From Phycisphaerae bacterium (GTDB lineage Bacteria > Planctomycetota > Phycisphaerae > UBA1845 > PWPN01), in NCBI GenBank assembly GCA_045863575.1, contig BTUC01000002.1, positions 10,726 through 40,546 on the forward strand: a stretch of 29,821 bases of DNA, in the 5' to 3' direction. Of this stretch, positions 2,510-19,554 are shown piece by piece. How positions within the stretch are numbered: position 1 is the stretch's first letter; the number at the start of each line of letters is the position of its first letter. Position numbers and translations under genes: made by a program. Under the pieces are notes generated by a model. The model made no database searches, was not told the DNA's origin, and worked only from the letters and a program-made list of their open reading frames with translations.

Positions 2510-4609
2510 ATGACATCATCTGGCAGCAGCAAGCAACAGAACGTCTGCCCGAGCCATACGCCTGGTAAGCGGCCGGCGCCGCGTCTCTGGAGTTGGTGGC
2601 TGATTCTTTTTTCGGGCCTGGCCGCACTGGTGTGGTTTCTGGTCCGGGTACTGCCCAAGCCCGCACGGGCCGCCTATCCCTGTCAGCGGGCGGCCGCCCC
2701 GCTGGCCGCCGGCTTCGTCCTGTGGCTGGGCAGCGGCATCGGCTCCGCGTGGGCCTATCGCCAGGCTGGCCGGCTGCTGAAGCAGTCCCGTGCCCGGCTG
2801 GCGTTCGGCTGCCTGAGCATCGCCGCCGTGCTGGCCGTGATTGCCATCCAGCACACCCCGACGCCGCCGGCCGCGGCGGCTCCTCCTGTGCCCAACCAGC
2901 CGATCGGACAAGCCCAGGGGCTGCACCCGGGGCGCGTGGTCTGGGCCCACGATCCAGACGCCACCGACTGGGCCGGGCCGGGTAACGGCCATTGGTGGGA
3001 GCCCGCCCACACGAGCCAGACGCGAGTCGACCAGATGCTCTCCCGCACCCTCCGTACGCTCGCCGGCCAAACGACCGATGCCGCCGCCTGGAATGCCCTC
3101 ATCCGCCACTTCAACCAGACCCGCCGGCAGATCGTCGCCGGCTACACGCCGGGAGAAAAAATTGCCATCAAGGTGAACCTCGTCGGCTGCATCCACGCCA
3201 ACGGCTGGGGCGGCGTCGACCCGAACACCTACAACCTGGTCAGCAAAGTGGACTACATGAACACTTCGCCCCAGGTCATGCTGGCCCTGCTGCGGCAACT
3301 GGTCACTGCCGCCGGTGTCAATCCGGCGGACATCTCCATCGGCGACCCCGTGTGCCTGTTTCCGAAGCAGTATTACGATCTTCTGCACCCCGAGTTCCCG
3401 CAGGTCCAGTACCTGGATTACCTTGGGGGCAACTCCGCCAATCCGCGTACCAAGGTTCTCCCCTCCGATGTCCGCTTCTACTGGAGCGCACGGCCGACCG
3501 GCAAAACGCCCGACTATATCCCCGCTCCGTACGCGCAAGCGACCTACTTCATCAACCTGGCCAACTTCAAATCGCACAGCAGCGCCGGCGTAACGCTGTG
3601 CGGAAAGAATTACTACGGCTTCCTGGCGCGAACGCCCGTCGAGAGCGGCTACTACGATATGCACCTGACCCTGCCCGAATTGGCCGGTGGCCCCGGCCAG
3701 TACCGCTGCATGGTAGATCTCATGGGCCACGCCCACAGCGGCGGCAAGGCCCTGCTCTACCTTGTCGACGGACTCTACTCGGGTGTACACCCGACGGAGG
3801 ATTCGCCGCGCAAATGGCTCAAGCCGCCATTCAACAACGACTGGACCTCGAGCCTGTTTGCCTCGCAGGACCCGGTGGCTATTGACTCCGTCGGCTTTGA
3901 CTTTCTCTACAACGAATGGATCCTCTATACGCACATGTCCGCCGCCGACGACTATCTCCACGAGGCCGCCCAGGCCGATAACCCCCCGTCGGGCAAGTTC
4001 TACGACCCCAACCACGCCACCGCCACGACACGACTGGCGAGCCTGGGCGTCCACGAACACTGGAACAACGCGACCGATCGCCAGTACAGCCGCAACCTGG
4101 GCACCGGCGAGGGAATCGAGTTTGTGGTGGCCGGGCGCCCCACCGCCATCATCGAGGCCACTCCGACTGCCGGCCGGGCGCCGCTGAGCGTGCAGTTCGA
4201 CGGTTCCGACTCGTACGATGTGGATGGTGCGATCACGGAGTGGTCCTGGGATTTCGAGAACGACGGCGTGCCCGATGAAATCGGGCAGACGATCACGCAC
4301 GTGTACGCGACCAGCGGGGATCACACCGCGGCTCTCAGCGTGACGGACAACGAGGGCAACACCGACACGCGCACAGTCCTGATCGCCATCGACCATCAGC
4401 CGGGAGACGGCGACAGCGACTATGACGTGGACCAGTCCGATTTCGGCAGGCTACAGGCGTGCATGACCACGGCATCCCAGAGCGTGTCAGACGCATGCCG
4501 GATTTTCGACTTGAACGGCGATGGCTTTGTCAACCAGCCGGATGTCACCATCTTCCGGGGGTGCATGAGCGGGCCCAACAGCGAAGGCGAGCGCGACTGC
4601 GCCGACTGA
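2510..4609 (+). CDS. membrane-anchored secreted protein: N-terminal 3-TM anchor, large unknown (possibly DUF362-like) domain, PKD domain, C-terminal dockerin-like module
   Basis: 699 aa. Three hydrophobic helices at the N-terminus, then a Pro/Ala linker. The central domain contains GEKIAIKVNLVGC and QDPVAIDSVGFDFL. A PKD-type domain (LSVQFDGSDS...WSWDFENDG...YATSGDHTAALSVTDNEGN) lies at about 4150-4390. The C-terminal 68 aa (4403-4606) are DGDSDYDVDQSDFGRLQACM...DLNGDGFVNQPDVTIFRGCMSGPN. Confidence 0.8.
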   Translation: MTSSGSSKQQNVCPSHTPGKRPAPRLWSWWLILFSGLAALVWFLVRVLPKPARAAYPCQRAAAPLAAGFVLWLGSGIGSAWAYRQAGRLLKQSRARLAFGCLSIAAVLAVIAIQHTPTPPAAAAPPVPNQPIGQAQGLHPGRVVWAHDPDATDWAGPGNGHWWEPAHTSQTRVDQMLSRTLRTLAGQTTDAAAWNALIRHFNQTRRQIVAGYTPGEKIAIKVNLVGCIHANGWGGVDPNTYNLVSKVDYMNTSPQVMLALLRQLVTAAGVNPADISIGDPVCLFPKQYYDLLHPEFPQVQYLDYLGGNSANPRTKVLPSDVRFYWSARPTGKTPDYIPAPYAQATYFINLANFKSHSSAGVTLCGKNYYGFLARTPVESGYYDMHLTLPELAGGPGQYRCMVDLMGHAHSGGKALLYLVDGLYSGVHPTEDSPRKWLKPPFNNDWTSSLFASQDPVAIDSVGFDFLYNEWILYTHMSAADDYLHEAAQADNPPSGKFYDPNHATATTRLASLGVHEHWNNATDRQYSRNLGTGEGIEFVVAGRPTAIIEATPTAGRAPLSVQFDGSDSYDVDGAITEWSWDFENDGVPDEIGQTITHVYATSGDHTAALSVTDNEGNTDTRTVLIAIDHQPGDGDSDYDVDQSDFGRLQACMTTASQSVSDACRIFDLNGDGFVNQPDVTIFRGCMSGPNSEGERDCAD

Positions 4610-4728
4610 TCGGGACCGGTGTTGGTTTTGCATGTGGCACAGGTTTCCAGCCTGTGTACCGAACAGGTGCCCCACCGGTTGGAGCCGGTGCCACACCGCC
4701 TTTGGCGGAAAGAGTGTAAGGAGGAGAA

Positions 4729-6915
4729 ATGCCTGGCCGCGTAGCCGCCCTATCCCTATTGGCAGCCTTGTCCATGACAGCCCCACGAGCGCAGGGGGAT
4801 CCACCGAACCCTTACGGCGTGGCCGGCTGGGGCGTGCTCACCCAACTGGGCATGCCGGCTGACTGCCTCGATTACGACTGGAACGGGCTGCATCCCGGCA
4901 CGCTGGCCCAGATGTGCCGGCCGAACCACTACTACGACTACGTGGGCATTCCACACCGCTGGTGGGGCTGGAACGAGACCACCGGCCAGATCAACGACCC
5001 GACGCGATTCGCCCAGTGGATCGCCGACAATCCAGGTCGCGTGTGGATCATCGCCAACGAGCCGGACCTCGTCTCGCAGGACGGCCTCACGCGTGAACAG
5101 TACGCCCGGATGTACAAGACTTACCACGATTTCATCAGTCCGCTGGACCCGACCGCGAAGTTCTGCATCGGCGCCATCACCGGCGGATCGACGGCCGACC
5201 GCCTGGCCTACACGACTGGTTGGTACCAGTACGTCCTGAATTACTACCAGACCACCTACGGCCAGCCGATGCCCATCGACATCTGGAATATTCACAGCTA
5301 CTGCGGCCCGACGCAGATTGAGGATCCCGACCAACCGATTCGCGACTTCATCACGCCGTTTGTCAACTGGTGCCACACGGTGGATAACGGCCGATACGCC
5401 GGTTGCGAGGTGTGGATTACCGAGCTGCCCATCGGCGAGTGGAACGGGGCGCTCAGCGAAGAGTGGATCATCTGGTTTGCACAGCGCTACCTGCCCCGAC
5501 TGGAGCGAGCCGGCATCAGCCGGTGGTTCTGGTTCGTTTCGCGCGACAACTCCGAGTGGGCGACGGTGGCGCTGGTCAAGTCCACGGGCGTGACCGCCAT
5601 CGGGCAGGCCTACTCGGCGCTGGCCAACGGGTATCCCAACGAAATCATCCCCGTCCAGCCCTACGTCCCCGCACCCACGCCGGCCTATTTTGAGGACCGT
5701 TTCGATAACCCGACGTTGAGCGCCCCCTGGATGGTCAAGGCCGGAAGGTGGGCGGTTGACTCCGGCGTTCTGCGCCAGAGCCGCATCGACTTTCCCTGGA
5801 CCGGCGAGACCTGCGTGCTCCAGCACACCTGGGGCGATTTCGACGCCACGTTCAAAATGCGCGTCAATGAGGCTACCGATGGCGTTAATTGGGCGGGCTT
5901 CGCCTTCCACGTCGGAGGGCGGTTTCAGAGCGTGTTCCAGAGTGGGTATCTTGTTTTCCTGCGCCGCAACGGCACCCTCGGCCTCCACCATACGCCCGCT
6001 GGCACCGTCCGGGAAATCCCCGCTGCCGTGGCCGATGCTACGCAGTTCCAGCAGGTCCGGGTGCAGATGAACGGCTGGCGCATCCAGGTCTGGCTCAACG
6101 GCGTCAACCTGATCGACTACACCGACGCCGGCCATCGCTACGCTTCGGGGTACACAATCCTGCAAGTGCATAAAGCTGATTGCAGCTACGACGATGTGCA
6201 GATCTGGACCACGCCAAACGTACCACCCACGGTGAGCGCCACCACGATCAGTTCGAGCCATTTGGCGGCCAATGACGAGACCACCTACTCAGTGGCCGCC
6301 ACCGCCTCCGCGGCGGAGGGTGCCGCGGAGATCCAGGTCGTGGAAGTGCTGCTCAATGACGATACGCCCGACGCTCAGCAGGCCCGGGGTCGGTTCGCCT
6401 GGGGCCTCACGGACGAGGCCATCACGCAGGACGGCGGCGGCTGGACCATCATGGGCAACGCAGAAGGCGGAGGTCGATGGGCCTGGCGGTCCGACGGCTG
6501 GGGCACCGATGCCTACGTCACGCCCCGGGGCGCGACAACGGCTGTGAACGGCACCGCCCGAACCGTGACCTTTACGTTCTCGGCTAAGCCGGCATGGGCC
6601 CCTGCATCGGAGCAGCGAGTGCATGCGGCTGCTCGCGATGCGCGCGGCGACGCAACCGGATGGGTCCTCGCTCCCGCTGTTTTCCGCGTCCGCTGCTCCG
6701 CACCCGGCGATCTGGATTGCGATGGTGATGTCGATCAGGAGGACTTTGGCCGGTTACAGACCTGTTTCTCAGGGCCCGGCTTTACGCAGTCCGACTCCGC
6801 TTGCGAGCAGGCCCGGCTGGACGCAGATCTGGACGTAGACGGCGCGGATGTGGCCATCTTCCAAAACTGCATGTCCGGCCCCAATACCCAGGCTGACCCA
6901 CGTTGCGCACCCTAG
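4729..6915 (+). CDS. secreted clan GH-A (TIM-barrel) glycoside hydrolase fused to a concanavalin/LamG-like (DUF1080-type) domain and a C-terminal dockerin-like module
   Basis: 728 aa. Signal peptide MPGRVAALSLLAALSMTAPRAQG. WIIANEPDL (acid/base NEP) and VWITELPIGEW (nucleophile TE) are about 110 aa apart, as in GH-A families (Glyco_hydro_cc/GH128/GH5-like). The middle domain WMVKAGRWAVDSGVLRQSRIDF...FKMRV...QQVRVQMNGWRIQVWLNGVNLIDYTD resembles DUF1080/3-keto-disaccharide-hydrolase-type beta-sandwiches. The C-terminal 68 aa (6709-6912) are DLDCDGDVDQEDFGRLQTCFSGP...DADLDVDGADVAIFQNCMSGPN. Confidence 0.85.
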   Translation: MPGRVAALSLLAALSMTAPRAQGDPPNPYGVAGWGVLTQLGMPADCLDYDWNGLHPGTLAQMCRPNHYYDYVGIPHRWWGWNETTGQINDPTRFAQWIADNPGRVWIIANEPDLVSQDGLTREQYARMYKTYHDFISPLDPTAKFCIGAITGGSTADRLAYTTGWYQYVLNYYQTTYGQPMPIDIWNIHSYCGPTQIEDPDQPIRDFITPFVNWCHTVDNGRYAGCEVWITELPIGEWNGALSEEWIIWFAQRYLPRLERAGISRWFWFVSRDNSEWATVALVKSTGVTAIGQAYSALANGYPNEIIPVQPYVPAPTPAYFEDRFDNPTLSAPWMVKAGRWAVDSGVLRQSRIDFPWTGETCVLQHTWGDFDATFKMRVNEATDGVNWAGFAFHVGGRFQSVFQSGYLVFLRRNGTLGLHHTPAGTVREIPAAVADATQFQQVRVQMNGWRIQVWLNGVNLIDYTDAGHRYASGYTILQVHKADCSYDDVQIWTTPNVPPTVSATTISSSHLAANDETTYSVAATASAAEGAAEIQVVEVLLNDDTPDAQQARGRFAWGLTDEAITQDGGGWTIMGNAEGGGRWAWRSDGWGTDAYVTPRGATTAVNGTARTVTFTFSAKPAWAPASEQRVHAAARDARGDATGWVLAPAVFRVRCSAPGDLDCDGDVDQEDFGRLQTCFSGPGFTQSDSACEQARLDADLDVDGADVAIFQNCMSGPNTQADPRCAP

Positions 6916-7113
6916 AGCCGATCAGGGACGCCTTCTCGTCGAACCGTGGGCAACTGCCCTAAATCCACTTACACCGCAAAATAGACATTAAAACCTATTT
7001 ACCTGACCATAGGCATCAGGTACACTCCCCACCGACGCGGGATTCTGGCCATTCGGTTGGCGCGGTAACCACCGGCCCAGCCCGCTCTTGTCTATTGTTC
7101 TGGAGACGACAGC

Positions 7114-8469
7114 ATGATGCTCCGCCGTCTGCCCTGCCTGTTGGGCGTTCTGCTCACAACGAGTCTGGCTTACGCCCAGGAAACGATCCAGGAACCTCCG
7201 GACGCGCCAGTACCGACCACCAAGCCGGCGGCCGCACCCTCTCCCTGGGAGCGCCAGTTTCTGACCGGCGACTGGGATGGAGCGCGCACCGAGTTGGCCG
7301 AAAAGGGCCTCACCTTCAACCTGAATATCACGCAAATCCTGCAAGGGAATGCCCACGGCGGGCACCGCACGCGCGACGGGATCAAGTACTCCGGCTCTGG
7401 CGATCTGACCATCACGGCCGACACCGGCAAGATGGACCTGTGGCCGGGCGGCCTGCTGCTGCTCAATGCCGAACCCAAGTGGGGCGACGGCGTCAACGAA
7501 ATGGTCGGTTCACTGCTGCCGGTGAACACCGATGCCGCCAGGCCTGGCCTCAACGAAGGCTGCGCCATGACGCTGTCCGAGTGGATCTACTTCCAGCACC
7601 TGCTGGAGAACAAGCTGATCCTCATCGCCGGCAAGCTGGACGGAGCCCGCGCGTTCGACCGTAACGTGTTCGCCAACGACGAGCGGACGCAGTTCATGAA
7701 CGCGGGGCTGCGCAACAACATGATCATCCCGGCGTTCCTGCCGTACACCAACCTGGGCGCGGGAGCCGTGGTGAACCCGACCGAGTGGCTGTCGATCATC
7801 ACGGCCGTGGCCGACACCGAGGGTCGGAACAAGACGACGGGATTCGAAACCACGTTCCACGGGCCGACAAACACGACGGTTATTCACGAGTGGTCTTTCA
7901 AGATCAAGCCCTTCGACCTGCCGGGTAACCAGCGCTTCGGCTTCGTCTGGAGTTCCATGGATTTCGAGCACCTCCAACCGCCGTCGCCCTTCAAGGAGAC
8001 CGGTCCCCTGATGATGTCGCTCCTGGGGCCGAACCTGGCCAACAAGGTCGTGCGCATGCTCACGAAGTTCGACACCAGCCCGGACAACGTGGGCCTCTAC
8101 TACAATTTCGACCAGTACCTCTACACGGAGGAAGGCTGTCCGGACCAGGGTGTGGGCCTCTTCGGCCGCTTCGGATGGGCACGCGGCGACGTGAATGCCC
8201 TGGAGTACTTCTACAGCATCGGCATGGGGGGCAAGGGTGTCCTGCCGGACCGCGACGAAGACACGTTCGGCATCGGCTACTTCCACGCGAATCTCAGCGA
8301 CGACCTGCCGTCGTTCCTCCAACAGGAAGCCGGCGTGGAGATGTACTACAACATCCAGATCTGCCCCTGGCTGCACATCTCGCCGGACGTGCAGGTCATC
8401 ATGGATCCGGGCGGATTCAGCAACGAGTGCTCGCTGGTCTACGGCATCCGCATGCAGTTGAACCTGTAA
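7114..8469 (+). CDS. carbohydrate-selective porin, OprB family (outer-membrane beta-barrel)
   Basis: 451 aa. Signal peptide MMLRRLPCLLGVLLTTSLAYAQE. The family-typical N-terminal motif LTGDWDGARTELAEKGLTFNL matches the OprB 'GDWGG.R..L...G' start. Alternating amphipathic beta-strand pattern throughout. GGAGA box 8 nt upstream of the ATG. Located directly downstream of the secreted GH. Confidence 0.65.
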   Translation: MMLRRLPCLLGVLLTTSLAYAQETIQEPPDAPVPTTKPAAAPSPWERQFLTGDWDGARTELAEKGLTFNLNITQILQGNAHGGHRTRDGIKYSGSGDLTITADTGKMDLWPGGLLLLNAEPKWGDGVNEMVGSLLPVNTDAARPGLNEGCAMTLSEWIYFQHLLENKLILIAGKLDGARAFDRNVFANDERTQFMNAGLRNNMIIPAFLPYTNLGAGAVVNPTEWLSIITAVADTEGRNKTTGFETTFHGPTNTTVIHEWSFKIKPFDLPGNQRFGFVWSSMDFEHLQPPSPFKETGPLMMSLLGPNLANKVVRMLTKFDTSPDNVGLYYNFDQYLYTEEGCPDQGVGLFGRFGWARGDVNALEYFYSIGMGGKGVLPDRDEDTFGIGYFHANLSDDLPSFLQQEAGVEMYYNIQICPWLHISPDVQVIMDPGGFSNECSLVYGIRMQLNL

Positions 8470-8652
8470 TCAGACCGGCTGCAGAACTCCCAGCAGCACG
8501 CTGGAGAGGACGGTGGCCACCGTGTCACTGATGCCGCCGAAGACACCGTCCAGAACGGCGTCTCCCGCCTGACAACCTGTCGAGAAACCCAGGAGCAGCA
8601 CGGCCGCAATCGCCAGTGCTGCTCTTCGTCCATATGGGAATCGTATCTTCAT
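8470..8652 (-). CDS. small lipoprotein (about 60 aa) with lipobox
   Basis: The inner start of track ORF 8470..8772 is MKIRFPYGRRAALAIAAVLLLGFSTGCQAGDAVL..., a signal peptide plus lipobox (LGFSTG|C). It is preceded on the minus strand by a strong SD, AAGGAGGAGAACCG-ATG. Its stop TGA (8470-8472) abuts the OprB stop TAA (8467-8469). Confidence 0.55.
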   Translation of the reverse strand: MKIRFPYGRRAALAIAAVLLLGFSTGCQAGDAVLDGVFGGISDTVATVLSSVLLGVLQPV

Positions 8653-8872
8653 CGGTTCTCCTCCTTGTGTTCGCCTGCTGAGGCCCCGCCCCATCCTACG
8701 CGAGGACGGCTGGCGCCTCCAGCCTGCTGGTCCAGGCTGGTCCGCACAAGAGACAAAGCCCCGTTCTCTCACTACGAACGGCCGCGCGGGCTGAAGCCCG
8801 CGGCTCCTTGCTTACGGTTTCGGTGGACCTGTTCAGCCGGTATGATGGGCTCGTTACCGGAGACGACTGGCC

Positions 8873-10147
8873 GTGGTCAAAGTCCAATGCCCCCATTGTC
8901 AGCGCCGCTACCGCACGAAGGTCGAAGCCTTCGGCGTCACCGCCGTATGTACCAAGTGCCATCGCGCGTTCAAGATCGGCGAATCGCGCCCCCCCTTCGC
9001 GTGGAAGAGCCAGGATCTGGCCGAAGACTCGTGGATCGGCGTGCCGCCGCCCGAAGAACGCCAGGAGATGAAGCACTGCATCATCTGCGATGCTCCCCTG
9101 CCGCCCGAGGCGCTGCGCTGCCCCGAATGCGGAGCCAACCAGGTCACCGGCGTCGTCCACCGCTCGCGGACGCAGATTACCGAGGAGAAGATCCCCTTTG
9201 GGGCCATGCTGCCGTGGCGGTCGATTACCGTAGTCGCCGTTCTGCTCGTCCTGGGGTTGGGCGTCTACTGGGGCATTCGGGCCATCAGCCGCAGCGCCCA
9301 GCAATTGGGAGACGAGGTCGCTGACACCACATTGGCAACCCAGGTCGCGCGGCAGCTCCGTGACGGCGCGGACGAGTACCTGCTGGCGGAGAAACACGTC
9401 GGCGCGGTCAGCGACGCGAACCTGCCGCGCCTCGTCGGGATGCTCTCCGCACGCGACCCGTACATCCGACGGGCGGCCATCCTGCTGATTGGAGCCGGCC
9501 GGGCGACTCAACTCGAATCGCTCGTGGCCGCAGCTCGTTCGGAATCGGTTGACAGCGCCCGTGCCGCCCGAGACGCGCTGCTGGCCTTCGGGCCCCGGCA
9601 GCTGACAACATTGAGTAACCACGCAGACAGCAGCGTGCGTCAATCCGCCGCCACGGCCCTGGTGCTGCTGTTCGGGCTGGATCAGGCGGTGATTGCGCGC
9701 CTCTCCGAGCCCTCCTCCGATGCCGAGAAGATCCAACGCCTCAATGAGCTCTGCCGGCCATGGCCGCTGCTGACCGGCGGCTTCCACCTCCTGATTGCGG
9801 ACACCCCCGCTCCATTCGCTGTCCAGGTCCAGCAAGTCGGCAAGGTGTTCTACCTCAAAGCGGGCACAGGCCAGTTCATGACGCCCGATCCGCAGGAGCG
9901 GCGATTCCTCATCCCGCTGCACCGCTGGTGCCTGGCCACAGGTTCCGCAGTGGATCCAGAGCGCGTGCGGGAACTGATTGACGGCACCGTCCAACTGGCC
10001 GCACCGGTGGGTGCTGCCTGGGAAGGTCAGGTGCAGGTCAGCGCCAAAACGGTGATCCGCGGCCCTCTGCCTGGGTTCCTGCCCATCGAGCCGCCCCAAC
10101 CAGGCCGGACCGCCGAAGCGCCCATGGAACTGATCCGACCGGGTTAG
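8873..10147 (+). CDS. double zinc-ribbon (MJ0042-type) / single-TM / HEAT-repeat protein
   Basis: 424 aa with a GTG start. CPHCQRRYR...CTKCHRAF and CIICDA...CPECGAN Zn-ribbons, one TM helix (ITVVAVLLVLGLGVYWGI), then PBS-lyase/HEAT-like repeats (DPYIRRAAILLIGAG..., DSSVRQSAATALVLL). The overlapping 487-aa minus-strand ORF is low-complexity R/G-rich and was rejected. Confidence 0.7.
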   Translation: MVKVQCPHCQRRYRTKVEAFGVTAVCTKCHRAFKIGESRPPFAWKSQDLAEDSWIGVPPPEERQEMKHCIICDAPLPPEALRCPECGANQVTGVVHRSRTQITEEKIPFGAMLPWRSITVVAVLLVLGLGVYWGIRAISRSAQQLGDEVADTTLATQVARQLRDGADEYLLAEKHVGAVSDANLPRLVGMLSARDPYIRRAAILLIGAGRATQLESLVAAARSESVDSARAARDALLAFGPRQLTTLSNHADSSVRQSAATALVLLFGLDQAVIARLSEPSSDAEKIQRLNELCRPWPLLTGGFHLLIADTPAPFAVQVQQVGKVFYLKAGTGQFMTPDPQERRFLIPLHRWCLATGSAVDPERVRELIDGTVQLAAPVGAAWEGQVQVSAKTVIRGPLPGFLPIEPPQPGRTAEAPMELIRPG

Positions 10148-10185
10148 AGCCCCTTTCACTTCCTCAGTTCCGCAACGCCAGCTCT

Positions 10186-10215
10186 CCCCCCCTTTCCAAG
10201 GGGGGGGCGGGGGGG
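10186..10215. other. C7-TTTCCAA-G8-C-G7 element: GC hairpin / G-tract motif in the intergenic region after the 8873 gene
   Basis: The sequence ctCCCCCCCtttccaaGGGGGGGGcGGGGGGGta is seen directly. It forms a 9-bp stem (ccccccctt/aaggggggg) with a 3-nt loop, and contains two G-runs of 7 or more. No U-tract follows on either strand. Confidence 0.3.
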
Positions 10216-10429
10216 TATCGGACGACGCCGGGCTCGAATTCGCGGCCGGTGATTCGTGCGCGCAATGGCCGGCAGGGACACCGGCCGCTACGGAACTGGC
10301 GGGTTGGAGTGGACGAAAGAAGTCCGGGCAGTCCGCCAGAAGAAGCCGGGTATAAAGATGCCCCCCGATTCTAATTGCGGACTATGCCGATGAACTTTAT
10401 GGTTCAACTGGCAACAGACCGGGGTACGG

Positions 10430-10551
10430 CACGTGGCCACACGTGACCTGATGCGGGTGGCGTCACCCGCCCCGGGAGTGCGACCCGCGTATTGCGGAGG
10501 TCGGCTCTCCCGGCGACAATGGAAGATGGGGGTTGCGGATGTGGTCACGTG
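10430..10551. promoter_or_regulatory. cluster of three CACGTG palindromes (two spaced 10 bp apart, the third about 100 bp downstream in inverted GTCACGTG orientation) upstream of the NfeD-flotillin operon
   Basis: ggCACGTGgccaCACGTGAcc at 10430-10447 and GTCACGTGcc at 10544-10551, seen directly. CACGTGAC and GTCACGTG are reverse complements. The region also holds an AT-rich TATAAA-containing patch (about 10350-10420). Confidence 0.3.
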
Positions 10552-10584
10552 CCGGTTGCCACCGCTGGCAGAAAGGGGTGACCT

Positions 10585-11331
10585 GTGGTTTCCTCCCAAA
10601 TGCTGGCCCAGAGCGCCTCGCTCTTCGCCTGGTACAACGCCGTGTTCGTCGTGTTCTTCGGCGTGGGACTCTTCTTCACTCTGCTCCAGTTGATCGGCCT
10701 GGGAGGCGAAGGCGGCGTCGATGCGGATGCCGATGTGGACGTCGACGCGGATGTGGATGTGGATGCCGATGTTGACGCGGACGTGGATGCCGATGGGGAT
10801 ATCGACGCCGGTGCGGATGCCGATGGGGACATGGATGCCCACGCAGGCGCCGCGGTCGCCCATGTCCCCAGCCTGGTCGGGACGGCGGCGCAGCTCTTCG
10901 GCCTGGGCAAGATTCCCCTGTCCATGTCGCTCATGCTGCTCTGCTACACCGCGGGAGTCGTCGGGTGGCTGAGCAACAGCTTGTTCGTGGAACGCGGCAT
11001 GGACGTGGCCAGCCTGTTCCCCGTCAGTCTGCTCATCGCGCTGATGGCCGGCTTCGTCGTACTGCGCGCGGTAGGCTCTCTCATGAGCCGTTACCTGCCC
11101 TCGTTCTCCACGACAGCTATCGATAAGCGACAACTGGTGGGCATGACCGCCAAGGCGACCCTACCGGTGAACGAGAAGTTCGGCCAGGCTTCGCTCTTCG
11201 ACAAGCACGGAACGCTGCACGTGGTGGGTTGCCGCGTGCGGACCGGAGCCCCATCGATCGAGAAAGGCAGTCAGATCGTGCTGATCCGGTACATTTCCGA
11301 ACGCGACCTGTTCGTCGTCGGACGAGCATGA
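10585..11331 (+). CDS. NfeD-like membrane protein (YuaF/YqeZ short-form NfeD with C-terminal OB-fold), containing an acidic DV/DA repeat linker
   Basis: 248 aa (GTG at 10585; alternative ATG at 10600 giving MLAQSASLF...). Two N-terminal TM helices. The C-terminal segment QLVGMTAKATLPVNEKFGQASLFDKHGTLHVVGCRVRTGAPSIEKGSQIVLIRYISERDLFVV matches the NfeD OB-fold beta-barrel. It lies immediately upstream of a flotillin gene, the conserved nfeD-floT pairing. Confidence 0.7.
   Translation: MVSSQMLAQSASLFAWYNAVFVVFFGVGLFFTLLQLIGLGGEGGVDADADVDVDADVDVDADVDADVDADGDIDAGADADGDMDAHAGAAVAHVPSLVGTAAQLFGLGKIPLSMSLMLLCYTAGVVGWLSNSLFVERGMDVASLFPVSLLIALMAGFVVLRAVGSLMSRYLPSFSTTAIDKRQLVGMTAKATLPVNEKFGQASLFDKHGTLHVVGCRVRTGAPSIEKGSQIVLIRYISERDLFVVGRA
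10717..10838 (+). repeat. in-frame hexanucleotide tandem repeat (GAT-GYS)n encoding (D-A/V)n acidic dipeptide repeat inside the NfeD-like gene
   Basis: gtcgatgcggatgccgatgtggacgtcgacgcggatgtggatgtggatgccgatgttgacgcggacgtggatgccgatggggatatcgacgcc... encodes VDADADVDVDADVDVDADVDADVDADGDIDAGADADGDMDA. About 20 imperfect 6-nt units. Confidence 0.8.
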
Positions 11332-11399
11332 GCAAGTGAGCATACGGCGGGAGCTTGTGGCGCGGATACGTGGATGAGATTTCGAGAGGAGGCAGCGAC

Positions 11400-13373
11400 A
11401 TGCAAGTATTCACCGGCATCGTGTTCCTCGGCATGGCCCTGATCGTTCTACCGATCGTACTCGAGGATCAGTTCGGGGCTTACCGGTGGGTCCTGATTCC
11501 GCTGGGAGCGGCGCTGCTGGTGATCAGCACGTTCTGCCTGCTGATCGCGCGCTTCTATCGCAAGCCGGCCGCGAATCAGGCCTATGTGCGGACCGGCATG
11601 GGTTCCGCCAAGGTGATCCTGGACGGCGGCGCCTTCGTCATCCCGGTCGTGCACCAGCTCGTCGAGGTGAGCATGGAAACCATGCGCCTCGACGTCAAGC
11701 GCGTCGGGCAGGACGCCCTGATCACGCGTGACAATCTCCGCGTGGACATCGCCAGCGAGTTCTACATTCGCGTGGACGCGAACAAGGAGGCGATCCTTCA
11801 AGCCGCCCGGTCGCTGGGTGAGAAGAGTGTCAACGCCCAGGCTGTCTCCGATCTGGTCTACGAGAAACTGGTCAGCGCTCTGCGCAGCGTGGCCGCCACC
11901 AAGGATCTGCTCGAGCTGCACGTCAAGCGCGATGAATTCGCTTCGGCGGTGCTCGAGAACCTGACCTCCGACCTCCTGCAGAACGGTCTCAAGCTGGAAA
12001 CGGTGACCATCAGCCAGCTCGACCAGACGCCGCCGGAGAGCCTGAACGAACGCAACGTTTTCGACGCCCAGGGGCTCCGCAAAATTACCGAAATCACGCA
12101 GTCTCAGAACGTCGAGCGCAACCGGATCAACCGGGACGCCGAGCGGCAGATCAAGGAAAAGGACGTCGGCATCCGCAAGGAGGTCCTGGGGCTGGAGAAG
12201 GACCAGGCGGAGGCCGAGGCCATGCAGGCCACCGAGATCGCGAACATCAAGGCGGCCAAGCTTCGCGAACAGCAGGAGTACGAGATCCAGCAGCGCCGCG
12301 AGGTCGAACTGGCGGCCGTGCAGAAAGACGAGGCCGTCAAGAGAGCGGAGATTCTCAAGAACCAGTCGGTACAGGTCGCGGACGTGGAGCGGGAACGACA
12401 GGTTAAAACGCAGATGGTTGTGCGCGACCAGAAAGTGCAGGAGGCCGAGGCCGCGCGTCAGCAGGCGGTCGAGGTCGCCAAGCGTCTGGCCGAAATCGCC
12501 ATCGCCGAGAAGGAAGCCGCCCGGGCGGCCGCCGAGGCCAAGGCCAAGGCCGCCGAGTCCGAGCGCGAAAAAGAGGCGCAGAATGTCCAGACCGTGGCGG
12601 TGACCGCCGAGGCCGACCGCGAAGCGCAGAAGAAGATGATCGAGGAGAAGCAGCAGGTGGACGTGGCCAGGTACCGCCAGCAGATTGAGGCCGACGTCGC
12701 CGCTTACACCCAGGTCAAGAAGGCCGAGGGCGAGCTGCAGGCCGCCGAGAAGCAGAAGCAGGCCCGGCTGGTGCTGGCCCAGGCGGACGCCGAGGCCGCC
12801 AAGCGCCGCGCCGAGGGCGACCAGGCCGTCAAGATGGTGGACGTGTCCGTCGATCGCGAGCGCGTGGCCGTCGAGCAGGCCCGCGTCGACGTCGAGCGCA
12901 AGGAACTGGAGAACAAGCAGACCTTCGGCGAGGCGGCCCTCGAGTTCGAGGTCTCCAAGCTGGAGATCCAGGCCAACGCGGAAGTCCAGAAAGCCTTCGC
13001 CCAAGCCATCGGCAACATGCTCTCGCACGCCAACATGCAGATCTTTGGCGACCCGACCACGCTGTCCAACATGGCCGGGCGGTTCATGCAGGCCGCCGGC
13101 TACGGGCAGATGCTCAACGGGCTGAAGGCCTCACTGCCCGAAGACGTGCAGCAGATCGCCGGTCGGGCATTGACCGGAATGGGCGGTTCCCTGGCCGCGG
13201 CATTGCAGAAGGTGACCGGGCAGCACGTCGAACCGGCCGTCCTCGAGAGAGTGATCTCCGAGGTGGTCGCCGATCAGACGGCCCCGCCCGCAGAGGGCAA
13301 CGGCCGGCGCGTGGAGGCAACTCCGGCCAAACCCGAAGCGCCTGCCCGCAAGCAGGAAGAGAAGAAGAGCTGA
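11400..13373 (+). CDS. floT: flotillin-like SPFH/Band-7 protein (FloT/YuaG/YqiK type) with long EA-rich coiled-coil
   Basis: GAGGAGG SD 7 nt upstream of the ATG at 11400 (track start 11355 is probably too long). N-terminal TM anchor, SPFH domain (RTGMGSAKVILDGGAFVIPVVHQLVEVSMETMRLDV...ITRDNLRVDIASEFYIRV), then about 350 aa of E/A/K/Q-rich heptad coiled-coil typical of flotillin. Confidence 0.9.
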   Translation: MQVFTGIVFLGMALIVLPIVLEDQFGAYRWVLIPLGAALLVISTFCLLIARFYRKPAANQAYVRTGMGSAKVILDGGAFVIPVVHQLVEVSMETMRLDVKRVGQDALITRDNLRVDIASEFYIRVDANKEAILQAARSLGEKSVNAQAVSDLVYEKLVSALRSVAATKDLLELHVKRDEFASAVLENLTSDLLQNGLKLETVTISQLDQTPPESLNERNVFDAQGLRKITEITQSQNVERNRINRDAERQIKEKDVGIRKEVLGLEKDQAEAEAMQATEIANIKAAKLREQQEYEIQQRREVELAAVQKDEAVKRAEILKNQSVQVADVERERQVKTQMVVRDQKVQEAEAARQQAVEVAKRLAEIAIAEKEAARAAAEAKAKAAESEREKEAQNVQTVAVTAEADREAQKKMIEEKQQVDVARYRQQIEADVAAYTQVKKAEGELQAAEKQKQARLVLAQADAEAAKRRAEGDQAVKMVDVSVDRERVAVEQARVDVERKELENKQTFGEAALEFEVSKLEIQANAEVQKAFAQAIGNMLSHANMQIFGDPTTLSNMAGRFMQAAGYGQMLNGLKASLPEDVQQIAGRALTGMGGSLAAALQKVTGQHVEPAVLERVISEVVADQTAPPAEGNGRRVEATPAKPEAPARKQEEKKS

Positions 13374-13399
13374 TCGCCCGGAACAAGGCGGCACTCCAA

Positions 13400-13437
13400 C
13401 AGCGACCCGGACGGGCTCAGCGCTCTCCGGGTCGCTG
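13400..13437 (+). terminator. perfect 12-bp inverted repeat hairpin (CAGCGACCCGGA-N14-TCCGGGTCGCTG) after the flotillin stop
   Basis: Seen directly, 27 nt after the TGA. No canonical U-tract (the 3' side reads ccgttgattacg), so it is a probable factor-dependent or weak intrinsic terminator, or an RNA-stability element. Confidence 0.4.
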
Positions 13438-13484
13438 CCGTTGATTACGTGAAGGATTCCTGGGTGGTTGTAGCATTCTGAGGT

Positions 13485-13490
13485 TATAAT
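13485..13490 (+). promoter_or_regulatory. consensus -10 hexamer TATAAT about 200 nt upstream of the protease-like gene
   Basis: ctgaggtTATAATtcc. No convincing -35 at 16-18 bp spacing (TTGTAG sits at 11 bp). Weak evidence. Confidence 0.2.
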
Positions 13491-13687
13491 TCCGCTGGCG
13501 GCGTCAGCCATGCACAAAGGTCCTGGGAAGCGGTTCCAGGCGGAGCGTAACTCGTGGACACCTTGAAACTGCCGAAGACCGGCACGGTATATGTGGACAC
13601 GCAGATCGTGGTGCGGCGAGTCCGCCCCATGTTACAACTCAGGTTGCGGAGAAGAAGTAAACCAGCGACGAGAGACTCCCGGTGCTT

Positions 13688-15256
13688 ATGTCAAGAACGG
13701 CAGGCAGGTTGTTCCTGTTCATCTTGAGCTGTTTCTCAGCGCTGATATCGTCAGCCTGGGCGGATTGGCGGGACGAAATCGGTTATACGGACCTGCGGGC
13801 GCAGTTGGGCGCGGATACGCCAAGCGGTGCAGGCGTTGACGTAGTCCAGGTAGAGGGCAACTACCTTCAGACGCACCGCTTCCTGCCCTCGACCGACGAT
13901 CCTGAGTTCACCGACAAAGCGATCACAGACAGGACCGGTCTCGGTCTGACCTCCACACACGCCACCCAGGTGGCGCGCTACTGCTACGGATTGACCACCA
14001 GCATCGCTCCGGGCATAGACGTCATCGACTGCTACCAGGCGGACCACTGGCTGGAGGATGGTTTCCTGAGAACATTCGGGCTGAATCCACCCCGCATCGA
14101 GTCGAGACGGATCCAGAACCACAGTTGGATCTCGCGTTACTTCAATTGGCAGAAAAATACGGACGCGATTGAGCGTCTGGATCTGGTCATCGACCGCGAT
14201 GGCGTAGTGGCATGCGCCAGCGTCAACAACTACGATCCAGCCGATCCGACGTCTCGCGAAATGCCGGTACTCATGTGCAGCGCGTACAACGGCATCGCCG
14301 TCGGACTGACAAACGGAAAATCCAGCTACGGACCGACCATCACCTATGTATCCGGCCGAAGCAAGCCCGATCTGGTCGCCACTGCGGGTACCCCCCTGAC
14401 CAGCTATGCGACTGCCGTCACCAGTGCTTCGGCGGCCATGCTCGTGGAGGCACAGGAGCGGCTGGGCGTGTTCTCGGATCTGCCCGCACGAGAGCGTCTC
14501 CGGGCAACACCCATGCTGACCAAGTGTCTTCTCATGGGCGGGGCGACAAAACCTGAGGGCTGGAGACCAGGCACCGTTACCCCCCGCACGGACGGGACGA
14601 TCCCCCTCGATTACCGCTACGGGGCCGGCAGCCTCAACATCCACAAGAGTTACAGGATTCTTTCCGCTGGCCAGCACGCGGGCGGGAATGCAGTCGTGGT
14701 GCCATGCACAGGCTGGGACTACGGCCGTATCGCCGCCGCCGAACGGCGCTACTTCCTCGAGATTCCGCAGAACCAGGTGGCCAGCACAATCTCGATCATG
14801 CTGGTCTGGCACCGAAGGATTGCCACCCCGCCGGACCTCGATCGCGACGATGACGTGGATTCCGCCGATCTCGAGATCTTTCGGGCTTGTACGACGGGAG
14901 CCAACGCGGGTCCTTATCCCGCTGAATGCCGGGAGGTGGATTTCGACGATGACGCTGATATCGACCAAAGTGACTTCGGCGTCTTCCAGGTTTGCGTGAG
15001 CGGCGCCGATCAGCCTCCGCCGGTTGCCTGCCGCCGGCGACCAACAGCCAGTCTGGCGAACCTTGACCTGAAACTTTATGCTACCGAGGGGTTCGAACTA
15101 GGAGCACTTCGCGCCCAGAGCATCTCGCCGATCGACAACGTCGAACACATCTACCTTCAGAACGTCTCGTCCGGAAGCTGGGCGATCGTGGTATCCTCCG
15201 ACGGACTCTCGTCCTATGCCCTCACCTGGGATGCTCAACTGACAGTTTCGCCCTGA
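13688..15256 (+). CDS. secreted divergent subtilisin-like (S8) peptidase-like protein with dockerin-like module and an about 80-aa C-terminal extension
   Basis: Signal peptide MSRTAGRLFLFILSCFSALISSAWA (ATG at 13688; track GTG at 13682). S8-like motifs: His box STHATQVARYCYG (compare HGTHVAG), KPDLVATAG (compare KPDIxAPG), Ser box TSYATAVTSASAAM (compare GTSMAAP), C-terminal YRYGAGSLNIHKSY (compare GxGxxNxxxA). The Asp box is not clear. The dockerin-like module at 14834-15021 is DLDRDDDVDSADLEIFRACTTGA...DFDDDADIDQSDFGVFQVCVSGA. Confidence 0.65.
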   Translation: MSRTAGRLFLFILSCFSALISSAWADWRDEIGYTDLRAQLGADTPSGAGVDVVQVEGNYLQTHRFLPSTDDPEFTDKAITDRTGLGLTSTHATQVARYCYGLTTSIAPGIDVIDCYQADHWLEDGFLRTFGLNPPRIESRRIQNHSWISRYFNWQKNTDAIERLDLVIDRDGVVACASVNNYDPADPTSREMPVLMCSAYNGIAVGLTNGKSSYGPTITYVSGRSKPDLVATAGTPLTSYATAVTSASAAMLVEAQERLGVFSDLPARERLRATPMLTKCLLMGGATKPEGWRPGTVTPRTDGTIPLDYRYGAGSLNIHKSYRILSAGQHAGGNAVVVPCTGWDYGRIAAAERRYFLEIPQNQVASTISIMLVWHRRIATPPDLDRDDDVDSADLEIFRACTTGANAGPYPAECREVDFDDDADIDQSDFGVFQVCVSGADQPPPVACRRRPTASLANLDLKLYATEGFELGALRAQSISPIDNVEHIYLQNVSSGSWAIVVSSDGLSSYALTWDAQLTVSP

Positions 15257-15275: not shown

Positions 15276-16466
15276 TCAAGAGCAATCCGGTTTCCGGCGG
15301 GGCTTCAGCCGGGTCACGGCCATAGCTGCCAAAGCCGCCCAGGCCAGCAACAGCGCACTTGGTTCCGGGGTCTGGTACGATGTGCCCAGATAGGCAACCC
15401 AGGTCACCACCCGCAATGCTTCCGTCGGGCAAAAGCCATACCCCATCAGCATCCGTCCGTCGTCCGAAACACTCAAGGCGTTCATCAGTTCCCAGCCTTC
15501 AACATCCAGGCCTACCTCGGCCAGCACGGCGGAAACCGATCGCAGTCCATGTGCCTTGTCCCACATCAGAGCCCCGTCCGTACCCTCGCCCACAATCACC
15601 GAACCGTCCGATGATACGTCTAACGCTCCGGAGTACACGTGGCCGCCCGGGAGATATCCAAGGCTGACCATCCCTGTTTCCGCTGTCCAACGGAAAGCTT
15701 CGACCCCCAGAGCCGACGTGCCCCTGCCGACAATGACCTTCCCGTCCGCAGAAACGGCCGTCGCCGTACTGCTGAACAACCCTCCGCCAAAGTCGCCGAG
15801 CCCCACCATGCCCTCGGCCGGCGTCCAACGAAAGGCTTCGGAGTACAGTCCGCTCGCGGCGGAGGAGCTCTCTCCCACGACAACCCCGCCGTTCCTGGAA
15901 ACCCCCAAGGCTCGTCCATAGAACCTACCGCCTGGCAATTCGCCAAGTGATTCAATCTGCGGAATCGGCGCATTCCACCGCCACTGAACAGCCTCAGTGC
16001 CGGAGGAAGAGGTGCCGTAGCCGACGAAACTCGCTCCCCCAAAAGCTAACACCTCACTATGAAACGCGCCTCCCGGAAGGTCGCCCAGGCCGATCTGCCG
16101 ATTCTGACCGACCGGCGTAAACATGTACGCTTCCGTGACCCCGGGCTTCGTGCGCGCTCCGACGAAGACATGAGGGGGCCCCGGGCTCACGTCTGTCGGT
16201 CGCCAGTTCGTAAAACCAACTCCCGGTCCAGGGAGGGGGCCGAGACCGTCCGTCGCATTCCATGTCCAGGGGCGGGTAGCGCCTGTGATCGGGTCTTCCG
16301 CCTGCCCGACGACTCGCACGCCATCCGACGAGAGCGCCGTTCCCCACATGTTGGGGTAGCCAGGTAGTTGCCCGACCTCCAAGAGAAAGGGCGGCTCGGC
16401 CGCGACGGTGGCCGCGAAAACCAGCACGATCGCAGCGGTGTGTGGATTCATGAGGCTGCGTGCCAT
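15276..16466 (-). CDS. HAF-repeat extracellular protein with PEP-CTERM sorting signal
   Basis: 396 aa. AGGAGG SD 6 nt upstream of the ATG. Signal peptide, then 5 or more repeats of about 45 aa (G.LPGG..S.A.GVS.DG.VVVG.S...G.EAFRW....GM..LG). C-terminal PEPSALLLAWAALAAMAVTRLKPRRK is a PEP + hydrophobic + basic tail. Confidence 0.8.
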   Translation of the reverse strand: MARSLMNPHTAAIVLVFAATVAAEPPFLLEVGQLPGYPNMWGTALSSDGVRVVGQAEDPITGATRPWTWNATDGLGPLPGPGVGFTNWRPTDVSPGPPHVFVGARTKPGVTEAYMFTPVGQNRQIGLGDLPGGAFHSEVLAFGGASFVGYGTSSSGTEAVQWRWNAPIPQIESLGELPGGRFYGRALGVSRNGGVVVGESSSAASGLYSEAFRWTPAEGMVGLGDFGGGLFSSTATAVSADGKVIVGRGTSALGVEAFRWTAETGMVSLGYLPGGHVYSGALDVSSDGSVIVGEGTDGALMWDKAHGLRSVSAVLAEVGLDVEGWELMNALSVSDDGRMLMGYGFCPTEALRVVTWVAYLGTSYQTPEPSALLLAWAALAAMAVTRLKPRRKPDCS

Positions 16467-16679
16467 AGAACCTCCTGCAGCGTATGACGAACGGATCCGG
16501 ACGTAGGCAGGAACCTCTCAACCTGCAAATAGAAGCATCGCGGCTCGAGGGATAATCTTCCCAAAGCGGCTCCCCCCTACCATGACCAATCTATCTTGTT
16601 GTCTCCTGGATTTCAAATGTGGCCGGGGTTACGGGTCGGCAGCTTTGCCTGACAGGGACTGTCTGACGTGCCGAAGCGC

Positions 16680-17927
16680 CTATTCTCCATGCCTGGCCGA
16701 CTCGTCGCTCTTCGCTTCGGGTGACCCGCGCCCCCGCATCTGCTCACCTCGACCGGTATACCGAAGCCTGTAAATCCGGTTACCTTTGTCGTCGCTGATG
16801 AGAAGCGTCCCATCGGGTGCAACGGCCACGTCCACCGGCCGGCCCAGCGGCGACTTGGCGCCTTCGGGAAGGAAGTGAACATACCTCTGTTCGCCGTAGG
16901 GCCGGCCGTTCTCAAACAACACGCGAGTCACGCAGTAGCCCGCCGGCTTGCTGCGGTTCCACGAGCCGTGGTAAGCCACGAACGCGTCACCCCTATGTCC
17001 GGGAAACTGGTCGGCCGTGTAGAACTCCATGGCATTGGCCGCCCAGTGAGCACCGCCGCACCACTCGGGAACAGTGGTTTTGGCGGCCAGGGCGACGATG
17101 TCCTCCCGCTCCATGTACTCGTAGCGCGGCAATCTCATGCCCACGATGAAAGGATGGCCGTAGAAGCCCCCTTCCCGATAGTGATTCATCTCTTCAGGAG
17201 GGTTCAGATCCGTGATCGGCTGGCCGGCCTCACCGCCCTCCCCGAGTTCCTTTCCGAACCAGTCGCTGCCGTGATCCATGCCCCAGATTTCATCGGTACC
17301 CGGCCGGACGACGAGTTTCTCGGTATTGCGGATGCCCGTGCAGAAAAGCTTCTCATCGCTGCCGTCGAGGGCGTAGGACCAGATTTTCTGGCGCTTGGTG
17401 TCGGCTTCGTCGGTGATGTTCCCGCTGTCCCCGATGCTGGTGTACAGCCGCCCTTTATGGATCAGGATCGACCGCCACCAGTGGCCGCCCCCTTTAGTCA
17501 AACGCCCTTCGGGGATCACGATGACGTGCTCGTCGCTACGGCCATCCCCATCGGTGTCCCGGGCCCGCCCAATGGCAGTCGACAGGGAGTACCACAGCCA
17601 GCCGTCGTGCCAGCACAACCCGTGCACCGACGGGCCCGCCTTGAGGAAGGTCGTGATCTGTTCGTAATGACCATCCCCATCCGCATCGCGGCAAGCTTTG
17701 ATTTCACCATCAGTTGGAACACTGACGTACAGCGTCTGATCCGATCCCAGCCGCATGAATCGCGGAGTCTTGATTCCGTCAACAACCACCGTGAGCGAGT
17801 AACCGGGGCGGACCCAGGGGCCCGGCGCCCCCTCGGAAGCTGCGCTACCAAAACCCCCGAGGATGGAAAGTAGCCCTGCCAGCCCGACCCATGCGAGCCG
17901 ACCCGTATGTCCGATAATCAAGCCCAT
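16680..17927 (-). CDS. soluble quinoprotein glucose/sorbosone dehydrogenase-family (GSDH, beta-propeller) protein
   Basis: The preferred start is the ATG at 17927 (MGLIIGHTGRLAWVGLAGLLSILGGFGSAASEG signal peptide, GGAGAG box upstream). The track's TTG start at 17999 adds 24 aa with no signal peptide. Family-typical motifs DADGDGHYE, DTDGDGRSDEHVIV, GGGHWWRSI, YGHPF, APDGTLLISDDKGNRIYRL. Confidence 0.8.
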   Translation of the reverse strand: MGLIIGHTGRLAWVGLAGLLSILGGFGSAASEGAPGPWVRPGYSLTVVVDGIKTPRFMRLGSDQTLYVSVPTDGEIKACRDADGDGHYEQITTFLKAGPSVHGLCWHDGWLWYSLSTAIGRARDTDGDGRSDEHVIVIPEGRLTKGGGHWWRSILIHKGRLYTSIGDSGNITDEADTKRQKIWSYALDGSDEKLFCTGIRNTEKLVVRPGTDEIWGMDHGSDWFGKELGEGGEAGQPITDLNPPEEMNHYREGGFYGHPFIVGMRLPRYEYMEREDIVALAAKTTVPEWCGGAHWAANAMEFYTADQFPGHRGDAFVAYHGSWNRSKPAGYCVTRVLFENGRPYGEQRYVHFLPEGAKSPLGRPVDVAVAPDGTLLISDDKGNRIYRLRYTGRGEQMRGRGSPEAKSDESARHGE

Positions 17928-18382
17928 TTCTGCTCTCCGGAAGCCCTGCTGCCCAGGACGACAGCAGGAGAGGATGGCGGAAACCCGGTCCTGGATCAAC
18001 CCTGGAGCATCATGGCGGTTCTGGGACTCACGAGCGCGCCGACAATGGTATCTCAGATCAATTTTTAACCAGATTTACAAAGTGACCTCTTGATCTGCTG
18101 AATGTAATCGGGTAAAACAGGATGTAATTCAGGGGGAGAGACACCAAACGCAGGTGTCCGGTGAGGAAAGGAGCGCGCGGAGATGCCGCCAGTCGCGGCT
18201 CGGAGGGCAAGGGAAAGTTGTAGTCATTCCGTACTTTCCCGGCCTCTCAAATCTCTCACCTCGCTCCCAATCTTGTTGAGTGCGACCGAACCAGTGGGGT
18301 TCGTTTCGACAAATCGTTGAAGGCAAGCTTGCGCAGATCGCATCTCGCGGAATAGGGCTTGCCGGAAGAAGGAGGAGTGAAC

Positions 18383-19021: not shown

Positions 19022-19094
19022 CCAGCACGAAGCCCGGACGGACCATGTGCATGAGTCTTGGCCCGGGCTGAGCTGCTCCCTGTTTGTCTAACTG

Positions 19095-19137
19095 AAACGC
19101 CGCGCCCTATTCTCGGGGCGCGGCGTTTTTCTATTTT
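19095..19137 (+). terminator. rho-independent terminator of PEP-CTERM paralog 1
   Basis: aaacgccgcgccc-tattctc-gggcgcggcgttTTTCTATTTT. A 12-13 bp GC stem with a 7-nt loop and a T-tract, 75 nt after the stop. Confidence 0.8.
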
Positions 19138-19554
19138 ACTTCAACGAGAAGCTGCGGCCCATTAGTGCGGGAGGAGACCGGGCCGTCAAAATATCCATGC
19201 AAAATACAACAATCCTCTTGAATGCTCGTCGCGAGCGAGGTATAAGAAAACTCAGAGGCCGGAGTTTGATTCCTTCTGATTCGGCATCAGGCCGTTGCAA
19301 GAGCGTACCGGGCTGACTTGGCCCGGAGGTCGGAAAGACATTGAGGGAGAAAAGCATTCTGCAGCATTCGTGCGCATTCTTGCCAATTCCCTTCCGACCA
19401 GGACCGATCGTCTTCGCTCTTTTCATCTTCGCGTATAACCGGAACCGTGTGGTCCGGTAATTCGCTTTTCGCGCTGGGCGGCCTGTAACAAGCCGCCGAA
19501 TGAGGGGCTGCATCTTTCACAGGCAAATCGCAGCCAAAAAAAGGAGGAGTGAAC

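Follow-up and report, generated by a model that had tools for sequence, protein, structure and literature searches.

Outside the cellulolytic Firmicutes, dockerin-like modules without a known partner are common, and what they do has long been asked. The reference case is the type I dockerin of the clostridial cellulosome (PF00404; PDB entries 1OHZ, 2VN5, 4FL4 and 8X39). Working from cohesin/dockerin annotation, Andrei et al. (2019; PMC6461901) put forward a 'planctosome' for freshwater Phycisphaerae (Nemodlikiaceae), with dockerin-tagged non-cellulolytic M12B and M14 peptidases and with lamin-tail-domain (LTD) proteins as the proposed anchors; in the parts of that paper considered here, the model derives from domain annotation of one metagenome-assembled genome (MAG), and the tabulated rows covered give 0–1 cohesins and 1–6 dockerins per MAG. 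Non-cellulosomal dockerins in Planctomycetes are already known. Here we describe a dockerin-like module with four conserved cysteines, found in three unrelated exported proteins (A, B and C) encoded in a 29.8-kb stretch of a Phycisphaerae contig (BTUC01000002.1; GC content ~63%), referred to in its entirety as the window. The literature searched contained no description of this four-Cys subtype, nor of any Cys-containing or 'GC-type' dockerin in Planctomycetes.

The module is ~68 aa long and is built as an internal duplication, the consensus D-x-D-x-D-G-D-V-D-Q-x-D-F-G-x-(F/L)-Q-x-C-x-S-G-x(7-9)-C occurring twice and so accounting for all four Cys. Each repeat comprises a 12-residue EF-hand-type Ca2+ loop, with Asp at positions 1, 3, 5, 7, 9 and 12, followed by a helix. 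A six-frame motif scan of the window returned exactly six loop-plus-Cys units, two in each of proteins A, B and C (Table 1). The original prediction, a reading of the letters without database searches, had proposed such a double-loop module with four Cys in three proteins, and translations, motif scan and alignments all place the six loops and every Cys where it had put them. Its coordinates were right for modules A and B and for the start of module C, whereas the end that it gave for module C (15021) cuts off the fourth Cys (codon 15029-15031). The ending 'CMSGPN', which it had singled out, proved to be the commonest form of repeat 2 and not a general ending.

A hidden Markov model (HMM) built exclusively from relatives outside the window recovered module A at 64 bits (E = 2e-19), module B at 92 bits (E = 6e-28) and module C at 75 bits (E = 8e-23), with no other six-frame open reading frame (ORF) of the window scoring better than E = 0.4. 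Modules A and B are 49% identical (BLASTP E = 2e-17); the similarity of B to C is weak (E = 0.007). The many synonymous differences among the three DNA copies indicate that they are not recent duplicates, but are old and have been kept by selection. Two peculiarities of module B were also observed: a fifth Cys at loop-1 position 4 (DLDCDGD; codon 6718-6720), five Cys being present in 20/133 modules of the family set described below; and an Arg at loop 2 position 1 (6817-6819), where an Asp ligand is usual and where ~30% of family modules carry Arg or Lys.

Profile and fold both assign the module to the bacterial dockerin (type I-like, 'F-hand') superfamily, as a divergent subfamily that the curated models barely detect or miss. 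When a profile of 25 modules was searched against all PDB sequences, dockerins came first, led by the C. thermocellum double dockerin 8x39 (E = 3.8e-7) and 4fl4 (7.5e-6), then 5lxv, 2vn6 and 1daq; lower scores went to EF-hand proteins, CIB1 and calmodulin among them. Likewise, 23 of the 25 aligned relatives matched Pfam Dockerin_1 (PF00404) at E ≤ 1 (best 4.9e-7) and fewer matched EF-hand models, while some relatives exceed the Dockerin_1 threshold (e.g. L039, 28.8 bits). AlphaFold2 folded module B, given the family alignment, with a predicted local distance difference test score (pLDDT) of 95.4 and a predicted template modelling score (pTM) of 0.80, and in the model each loop is immediately followed by a helix (residues 10-18 and 45-54), a short linker helix being present as well. 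The duplicated ~22-residue loop-helix segment that defines type I dockerins is present in the alignments and in this model, as is profile and fold similarity to experimentally solved dockerins. Profile, fold and family-wide conservation hence bear out the earlier description, in which the double Ca-loop module was called dockerin-like and its Cys pattern set apart from that of clostridial dockerins.

Three other assignments were rejected. A calmodulin-like canonical EF-hand pair has an entering helix before each loop, and this feature was not found. The NCBIfam model NF041540 ('GC-type dockerin domain-anchored protein') resembles the present case in treating a dockerin-like C-terminal domain as an anchor in bacterial genome annotation; the window proteins did not match it at E ≤ 1 and only 4/25 relatives did (best E = 0.0016), and it is a different subfamily. 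Thrombospondin type 3 (TSP3) repeats (PF02412) were absent among the families matched by the 25 modules. The TSP3 repeat, which contains no helix, differs from the module in this respect, since the model has a helix in each repeat; the two are alike in combining Asp-rich DxDxDG Ca2+ sites with Cys, a matter of analogy and not of homology. TSP3 repeats do stand immediately upstream of the module in several carriers (P0001, P0006, P0228 and L039).

To place the three window copies in a wider family, an hmmsearch was run against 1.84 billion cluster representatives; 17,011 proteins matched at E ≤ 1e-3, of which 5,733 reached E ≤ 1e-10. The four-Cys module was present in 104 of the 144 best new library matches; all but one of the other 40 (39) were multi-dockerin proteins without it, whose scores accumulate over many repeats. 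A separate genome scan, covering one genome per species and seeded with the peptide DVDQ[SE]DFG from a tighter 10-sequence alignment, yielded 410 tblastn-confirmed stretches. The best 80 of these came almost entirely from Planctomycetota/Phycisphaerae MAGs, along with single MAGs bearing the labels Lentisphaeria and Rhodopirellula. The resulting carrier set comprises 131 ORFs from 79 loci, Logan contig L001 and the window (two L001 ORFs duplicating proteins A and B), and contains 133 modules from 16 assemblies. Within this lineage, which occurs in wastewater, anammox-type and other environmental metagenomes, the module has expanded considerably: MAG CAZOIA01 holds at least 38 carriers and the closed 4.28-Mb chromosome CP070790.1 at least 17, and 34/81 searched sequences hold two to four carriers, so that clustering as in the window is common. 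Members looked up at NCBI and JGI are named 'hypothetical protein' (most) or 'PKD repeat protein'. The four-Cys subfamily is sharply defined and easily searchable, yet poorly annotated, across thousands of representative proteins.

The cysteines set the subfamily apart from type I dockerins. C1 occupies loop position 19, where helix 1 ends. C2 follows 12–13 residues on; it belongs to the short linker helix and precedes loop 2 by four residues. In repeat 2, C3 and C4 are arranged as C1 and C2 are in repeat 1. All four are present in 123/133 collected modules, each Cys column being 94–100% conserved. In type I dockerins, the places of these cysteines are taken by core residues, Tyr/His and Leu, and ordinary dockerins caught by our own profile likewise typically have Tyr/His and Leu in the C1 and C2 columns. 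The helix consensus differs as well, D-F-G-x-F-Q-x-C-x-S-G standing against S-T-D-x-x-x-L-K-R-Y.

This conservation also bears on the possibility that the modules are a chance or compositional product of Asp-rich, low-complexity sequence in a high-GC genome, or, as the original prediction put its own counter-case, a scattered Asp-rich linker lacking conserved Cys in other proteins. A true Asp-rich run does occur in the window, (DADV)n at ~10700-10860. Nevertheless, that run gives no profile match, while an independent profile recovers the three modules at E 1e-19 to 1e-28; conservation over 133 modules extends to the four Cys and to the hydrophobic helix positions, and the model is confidently folded. 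We regard a compositional artefact as refuted, with virtually no probability left to it.

Some domains carry part of the Cys set. Across all collected domains, 33 have C1 and C2 without C3, and 20 of these lack any Cys in the next 20 residues; another 13 have just one of C1/C2, and 3 have C3 without C1 and C2. In the dockerin fold, helices 1 and 3 are antiparallel, which, judging from the secondary structure of the model, would place C1/C2 at one end of the module and C3/C4 at the other. The way in which the Cys occur together, along with the topology of the fold, suggests a single disulfide in each repeat, C1-C2 and C3-C4. If the module is indeed a naturally disulfide-stapled dockerin, it may be of use in engineered enzyme scaffolds. 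Three library proteins (P0073, P0036 and P0032) carry tandem arrays of 'half-Cys' modules that retain the first Cys pair only; these arrays look like intermediates between ordinary and four-Cys dockerins. The dockerins of anaerobic fungi (Neocallimastigomycota) are also Cys-rich, disulfide-bonded docking modules on secreted carbohydrate-active enzymes; they are ~40 aa long, of unrelated fold and devoid of EF-hand Ca2+ loops, and their likeness to the four-Cys module is convergence in name only.

Repeat 1 at first sight appeared far more conserved than repeat 2. This was an artefact of the retrieval peptide DVDQ[SE]DFG, and in less biased sequence sets the two repeats were similarly conserved; the idea of a 'single binding mode' was consequently abandoned. 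The less biased sets show Gln at loop position 10, Gly at 14 and Gln at 17 conserved in both repeats.

We then considered what the module is attached to. The carriers are diverse: 71 of them match 68 Pfam families (the 25 commonest being covered by name), with Dockerin_1 itself detected at E ≤ 1e-3 in only 7/71. Cargo includes BACON_2, CarboxypepD_reg, PKD, TSP_3, Ig, GHL10, beta-helix, sulfatase, GH39, GH123, alpha-amylase and M12 reprolysin domains, among others, and a crude heuristic assigned a signal peptide to 85 of 115 N-terminally complete carriers. In a Planctomycetota lineage, much of the secreted enzyme complement for polymer degradation carries the module. Homologues of protein B illustrate how it is distributed: 25/48 carry it, always C-terminally, directly after DUF1080 in P0224 and P0225 and after TSP3 repeats in P0228, while others, e.g. 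P0211 (Armatimonadetes), combine the same catalytic core with unrelated C-terminal domains. Such variable C-terminal domains show directly that the module has been shuffled onto a conserved core.

Its position is strongly biased, 122 of the 131 carriers (93%) ending within 12 residues of the module. An extreme C-terminal site of this kind, on very mixed cargo and in dozens of carriers per genome, would also be expected of a sorting or secretion tag read by an export or attachment machinery and possibly then removed, comparable to the C-terminal domain of the type IX secretion system (T9SS) or to PEP-CTERM/exosortase; as the name of the NF041540 model attests, dockerin-like domains at the C-terminus have been regarded as anchors before. 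We consider this explanation improbable for the present module. In 9/131 carriers it lies more than 12 residues from the end (in six, more than 40), and internal, N-proximal and tandem copies are among them, which speaks for a binding domain with its own fold and against a terminal sorting signal that is cleaved off. It also lacks a transmembrane segment or basic tail, unlike the PEP-CTERM proteins of the same window, no processing or secretion gene recurs next to the carriers, and N-terminal signal peptides already explain export from the cytoplasm.

The non-terminal or tandem copies occur in window protein C and in L078, L079, L019 and L034. L034 (1-6774) encodes a C25 (gingipain-like) peptidase with a non-terminal module plus a second, ordinary dockerin at its C-terminus. 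L078 (5269-10611) and L079 (585-3467) are large LTD carriers with CotH or Cthe_2159 and non-terminal modules.

The reading that we favour, at a probability of roughly 55%, is that the module is a divergent, disulfide-stabilised dockerin acting as a shared docking tag, by which secreted proteins are held on a common receptor encoded elsewhere. Exported carriers would reach an oxidising periplasmic or extracellular space, where each repeat would form its own disulfide, C1-C2 and C3-C4. These bonds would fasten helix 1 to the linker between the repeats, and helix 3 to the tail at the C-terminus, and so stabilise a small fold predicted to depend on Ca2+. The module would then serve as an interchangeable C-terminal docking tag for hydrolases, peptidases, sulfatases and adhesin-like proteins, and the putative receptor, in another part of the genome, could be a cohesin-like domain or some other surface component. 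A docking role is favoured because the module is homologous to protein-binding dockerins, and because Gln10, Gly14 and Gln17 are conserved in both repeats at helix positions that are not ligands. Loop positions 10, 14 and 17 correspond to cohesin-contact positions of type I dockerins (1OHZ-type complexes).

Several observations weigh against this reading. At the level of homology, the window copies fall under the Dockerin_1 gathering score of 22.9 bits (protein A, 21.0; module B alone, 15.7), the whole proteins B and C have no Dockerin_1 match in the Pfam scan, and Foldseek returned the same PDB dockerins as top targets for the module B model, but not significantly (E > 4). Arg or Lys at loop 2 position 1 may mean that the second Ca2+ site is altered, or that the ion is replaced by a basic side chain. 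The location of module A is a further concern: protein A has a strongly hydrophobic N-terminus (window 2510-2860; ~residues 26-50 and 93-117, moderately so at 64-83, with basic loops between), no ATG, GTG or TTG stands just before the last hydrophobic segment to provide an alternative start giving a signal peptide, and the two to three hydrophobic segments may hold the protein in the inner membrane, with module A periplasmic rather than at the cell surface.

The partner is the least certain element. No cohesin (PF00963) was detected in Pfam scans of the 23 window ORFs, in the five proteins with non-terminal modules or in the Pfam annotation of five related contigs, whole genomes being outside the scope of these scans. 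A cohesin search seeded with a CipA sequence (300 bits against 1AOH) retrieved 11 close clostridial relatives only, and no broad profile was obtained. Nor does any recurrent gene family lie beside the 131 carriers: all-versus-all clustering of 485 flanking genes gave a largest family of 4 members. Accordingly, the earlier statement that the window holds no cohesin stands for the 23 ORFs scanned, whereas its 'signature of cohesin-dockerin-type surface assembly' is supported for the dockerin homology and, for the assembly itself, is neither demonstrated nor refuted. Compared with the type I dockerins, then, the module belongs to a Planctomycetota host lineage and has no cohesin found so far in these limited scans.

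The same negative scans would fit a module that has no dedicated protein partner and is instead a Ca2+- and disulfide-dependent stabilising or ligand-binding appendage. In one version, it would bind acidic extracellular polysaccharide or the cell envelope through Ca2+ bridges and keep enzymes near their polymer substrates, in keeping with carriers that are mostly polymer-degrading enzymes and carbohydrate-associated domains (BACON_2, glycoside hydrolases, sulfatases). The profile also reaches generic EF-hand Ca2+ binders at E 1e-4 to 0.1, and a precedent is offered by bacterial OmpA-type TSP3 repeats, for which intra-repeat disulfide-dependent Ca2+ binding is reported (Dai et al. 2017, as cited in bioRxiv 10.1101/2023.11.21.568195). 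At the same time, it is protein-binding dockerins and not lectins that the module matches best in sequence and fold, the conserved Gln10, Gly14 and Gln17 are not Ca2+ ligands and are hard to explain by Ca2+ binding alone, and the extreme C-terminal site on so many unrelated proteins is unexpected for a pure stabiliser. We therefore hold such an appendage to be possible but rather doubtful.

Docking on a common receptor, our preferred reading, admits a more far-reaching form. The four-Cys dockerin could be the tag of a large, undescribed enzyme-display system of Phycisphaerae-type Planctomycetota, in which dozens of hydrolases per cell would be held on a receptor without a recognisable cohesin and the disulfides would make the module robust outside the cell. 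This is speculative and, on present evidence, unlikely; if true, planctomycetes would have their own equivalent of the cellulosome, built on a new partner fold. There are points of likeness to the 'planctosome', as an M12 reprolysin carrier (L050) and the LTD carriers (L078, L079) also occur in the four-Cys family; compared by description only, the parts of PMC6461901 considered here make no mention of a Cys-containing subtype or of dozens of carriers per genome. Used as bait, the module offers an experimental handle on the 'planctosome' idea and on the binding partner of planctomycete dockerins.

Table 1 Features of the window: the three module-bearing proteins, their modules and other genes (window coordinates).
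Feature	Coordinates	Strand	Content	Cys codons	Evidence
Protein A	2510-4609	+	699 aa; hydrophobic N-terminal region, DUF362, PKD domain, C-terminal module		translation, Pfam
Module A	4403-4606	+	68 aa; ends at last codon before stop	4460, 4496, 4562, 4598	
Protein B	4729-6915	+	728 aa; signal peptide, Glyco_hydro_cc core, DUF1080 (3-keto-disaccharide hydrolase), Ig-like spacer, C-terminal module		
Module B	6709-6912	+	68 aa; ends at last codon before stop	6763, 6802, 6868, 6904	
Membrane protein	10585-11331	+	long (DADV)n Asp-rich low-complexity run (~10700-10860)		
Band_7/flotillin-like gene	11355-13373	+	672 aa; directly downstream of the (DADV)n membrane protein		
Protein C	13682-15256	+	524 aa; signal peptide, weakly S8-like region, module at residues 385-454, then ~70 residues		
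Module C	14834 to ~15031-15043	+	internal	14888, 14927, 14993, 15029	
PEP-CTERM protein	one of 15276-16466 (-), 18359-19021 (+), 19549-19995 (+)		HAF-like repeats; end PEPSALLLAW...RLKPRRK		
Second PEP-CTERM protein	one of the same three (15276-19995)		CBM_4_9-like; end PEPATLALLGIPMLLFRRRRQA		
Shorter paralogue	one of the same three (15276-19995)		148 aa; signal peptide, no PEP-CTERM tail		
Fusion protein	24313-27213	+	966 aa; group-1 glycosyltransferase + FAD amine-oxidase-like domain		
Short ORF	27901-28377	-	RHS-repeat match (E=1.2e-6), no obvious full-length context		

The three host proteins differ in how well they can be classified. For protein A, Pfam returned DUF362 (E = 1.6e-13) and PKD_4 (E = 1.1e-15). 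Proteins B and C carry Sec-type signal peptides. Between DUF1080 and the module, protein B has an unannotated spacer (165 aa; residues 493-660, window 6205-6708), confidently predicted to be an Ig-like beta-sandwich; that this might be a cohesin was ruled out, the predicted fold being a generic Ig-like sandwich. The model of spacer plus module B (pTM 0.84) hints at a fixed orientation between both domains. The label 'S8-like protease' previously given to protein C did not hold up: the match to Pfam Peptidase_S8 (E = 2.6e-4, 20.8 bits) is below the cut-off of 21.8, 'VQVEGN' stands at the place of the subtilase catalytic D-[ST]-G motif, and no PDB relative was found by sequence. Module C seems to interrupt a loop of a C-terminal beta-sandwich, whose remainder would be the last ~70 residues of the protein.

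Protein B corresponds to GMU19945.1 (MAG hypothetical protein AMXMBFR13_00470, Phycisphaerae), with 728/728 residues identical, and two further strong module matches in the library come from the same MAG. JGI metagenome 3300061720 contains a syntenic strain (95% identity) in which modules A and B are retained.

An OprB porin and argininosuccinate lyase are also encoded in the window. The presence of PEP-CTERM proteins indicates that a second, unrelated C-terminal anchoring system is used beside the Cys-dockerin in the same genome region. The (DADV)n membrane protein and the Band_7/flotillin-like gene look like an NfeD-flotillin pair, and the short RHS-matching ORF is possibly a gene fragment.

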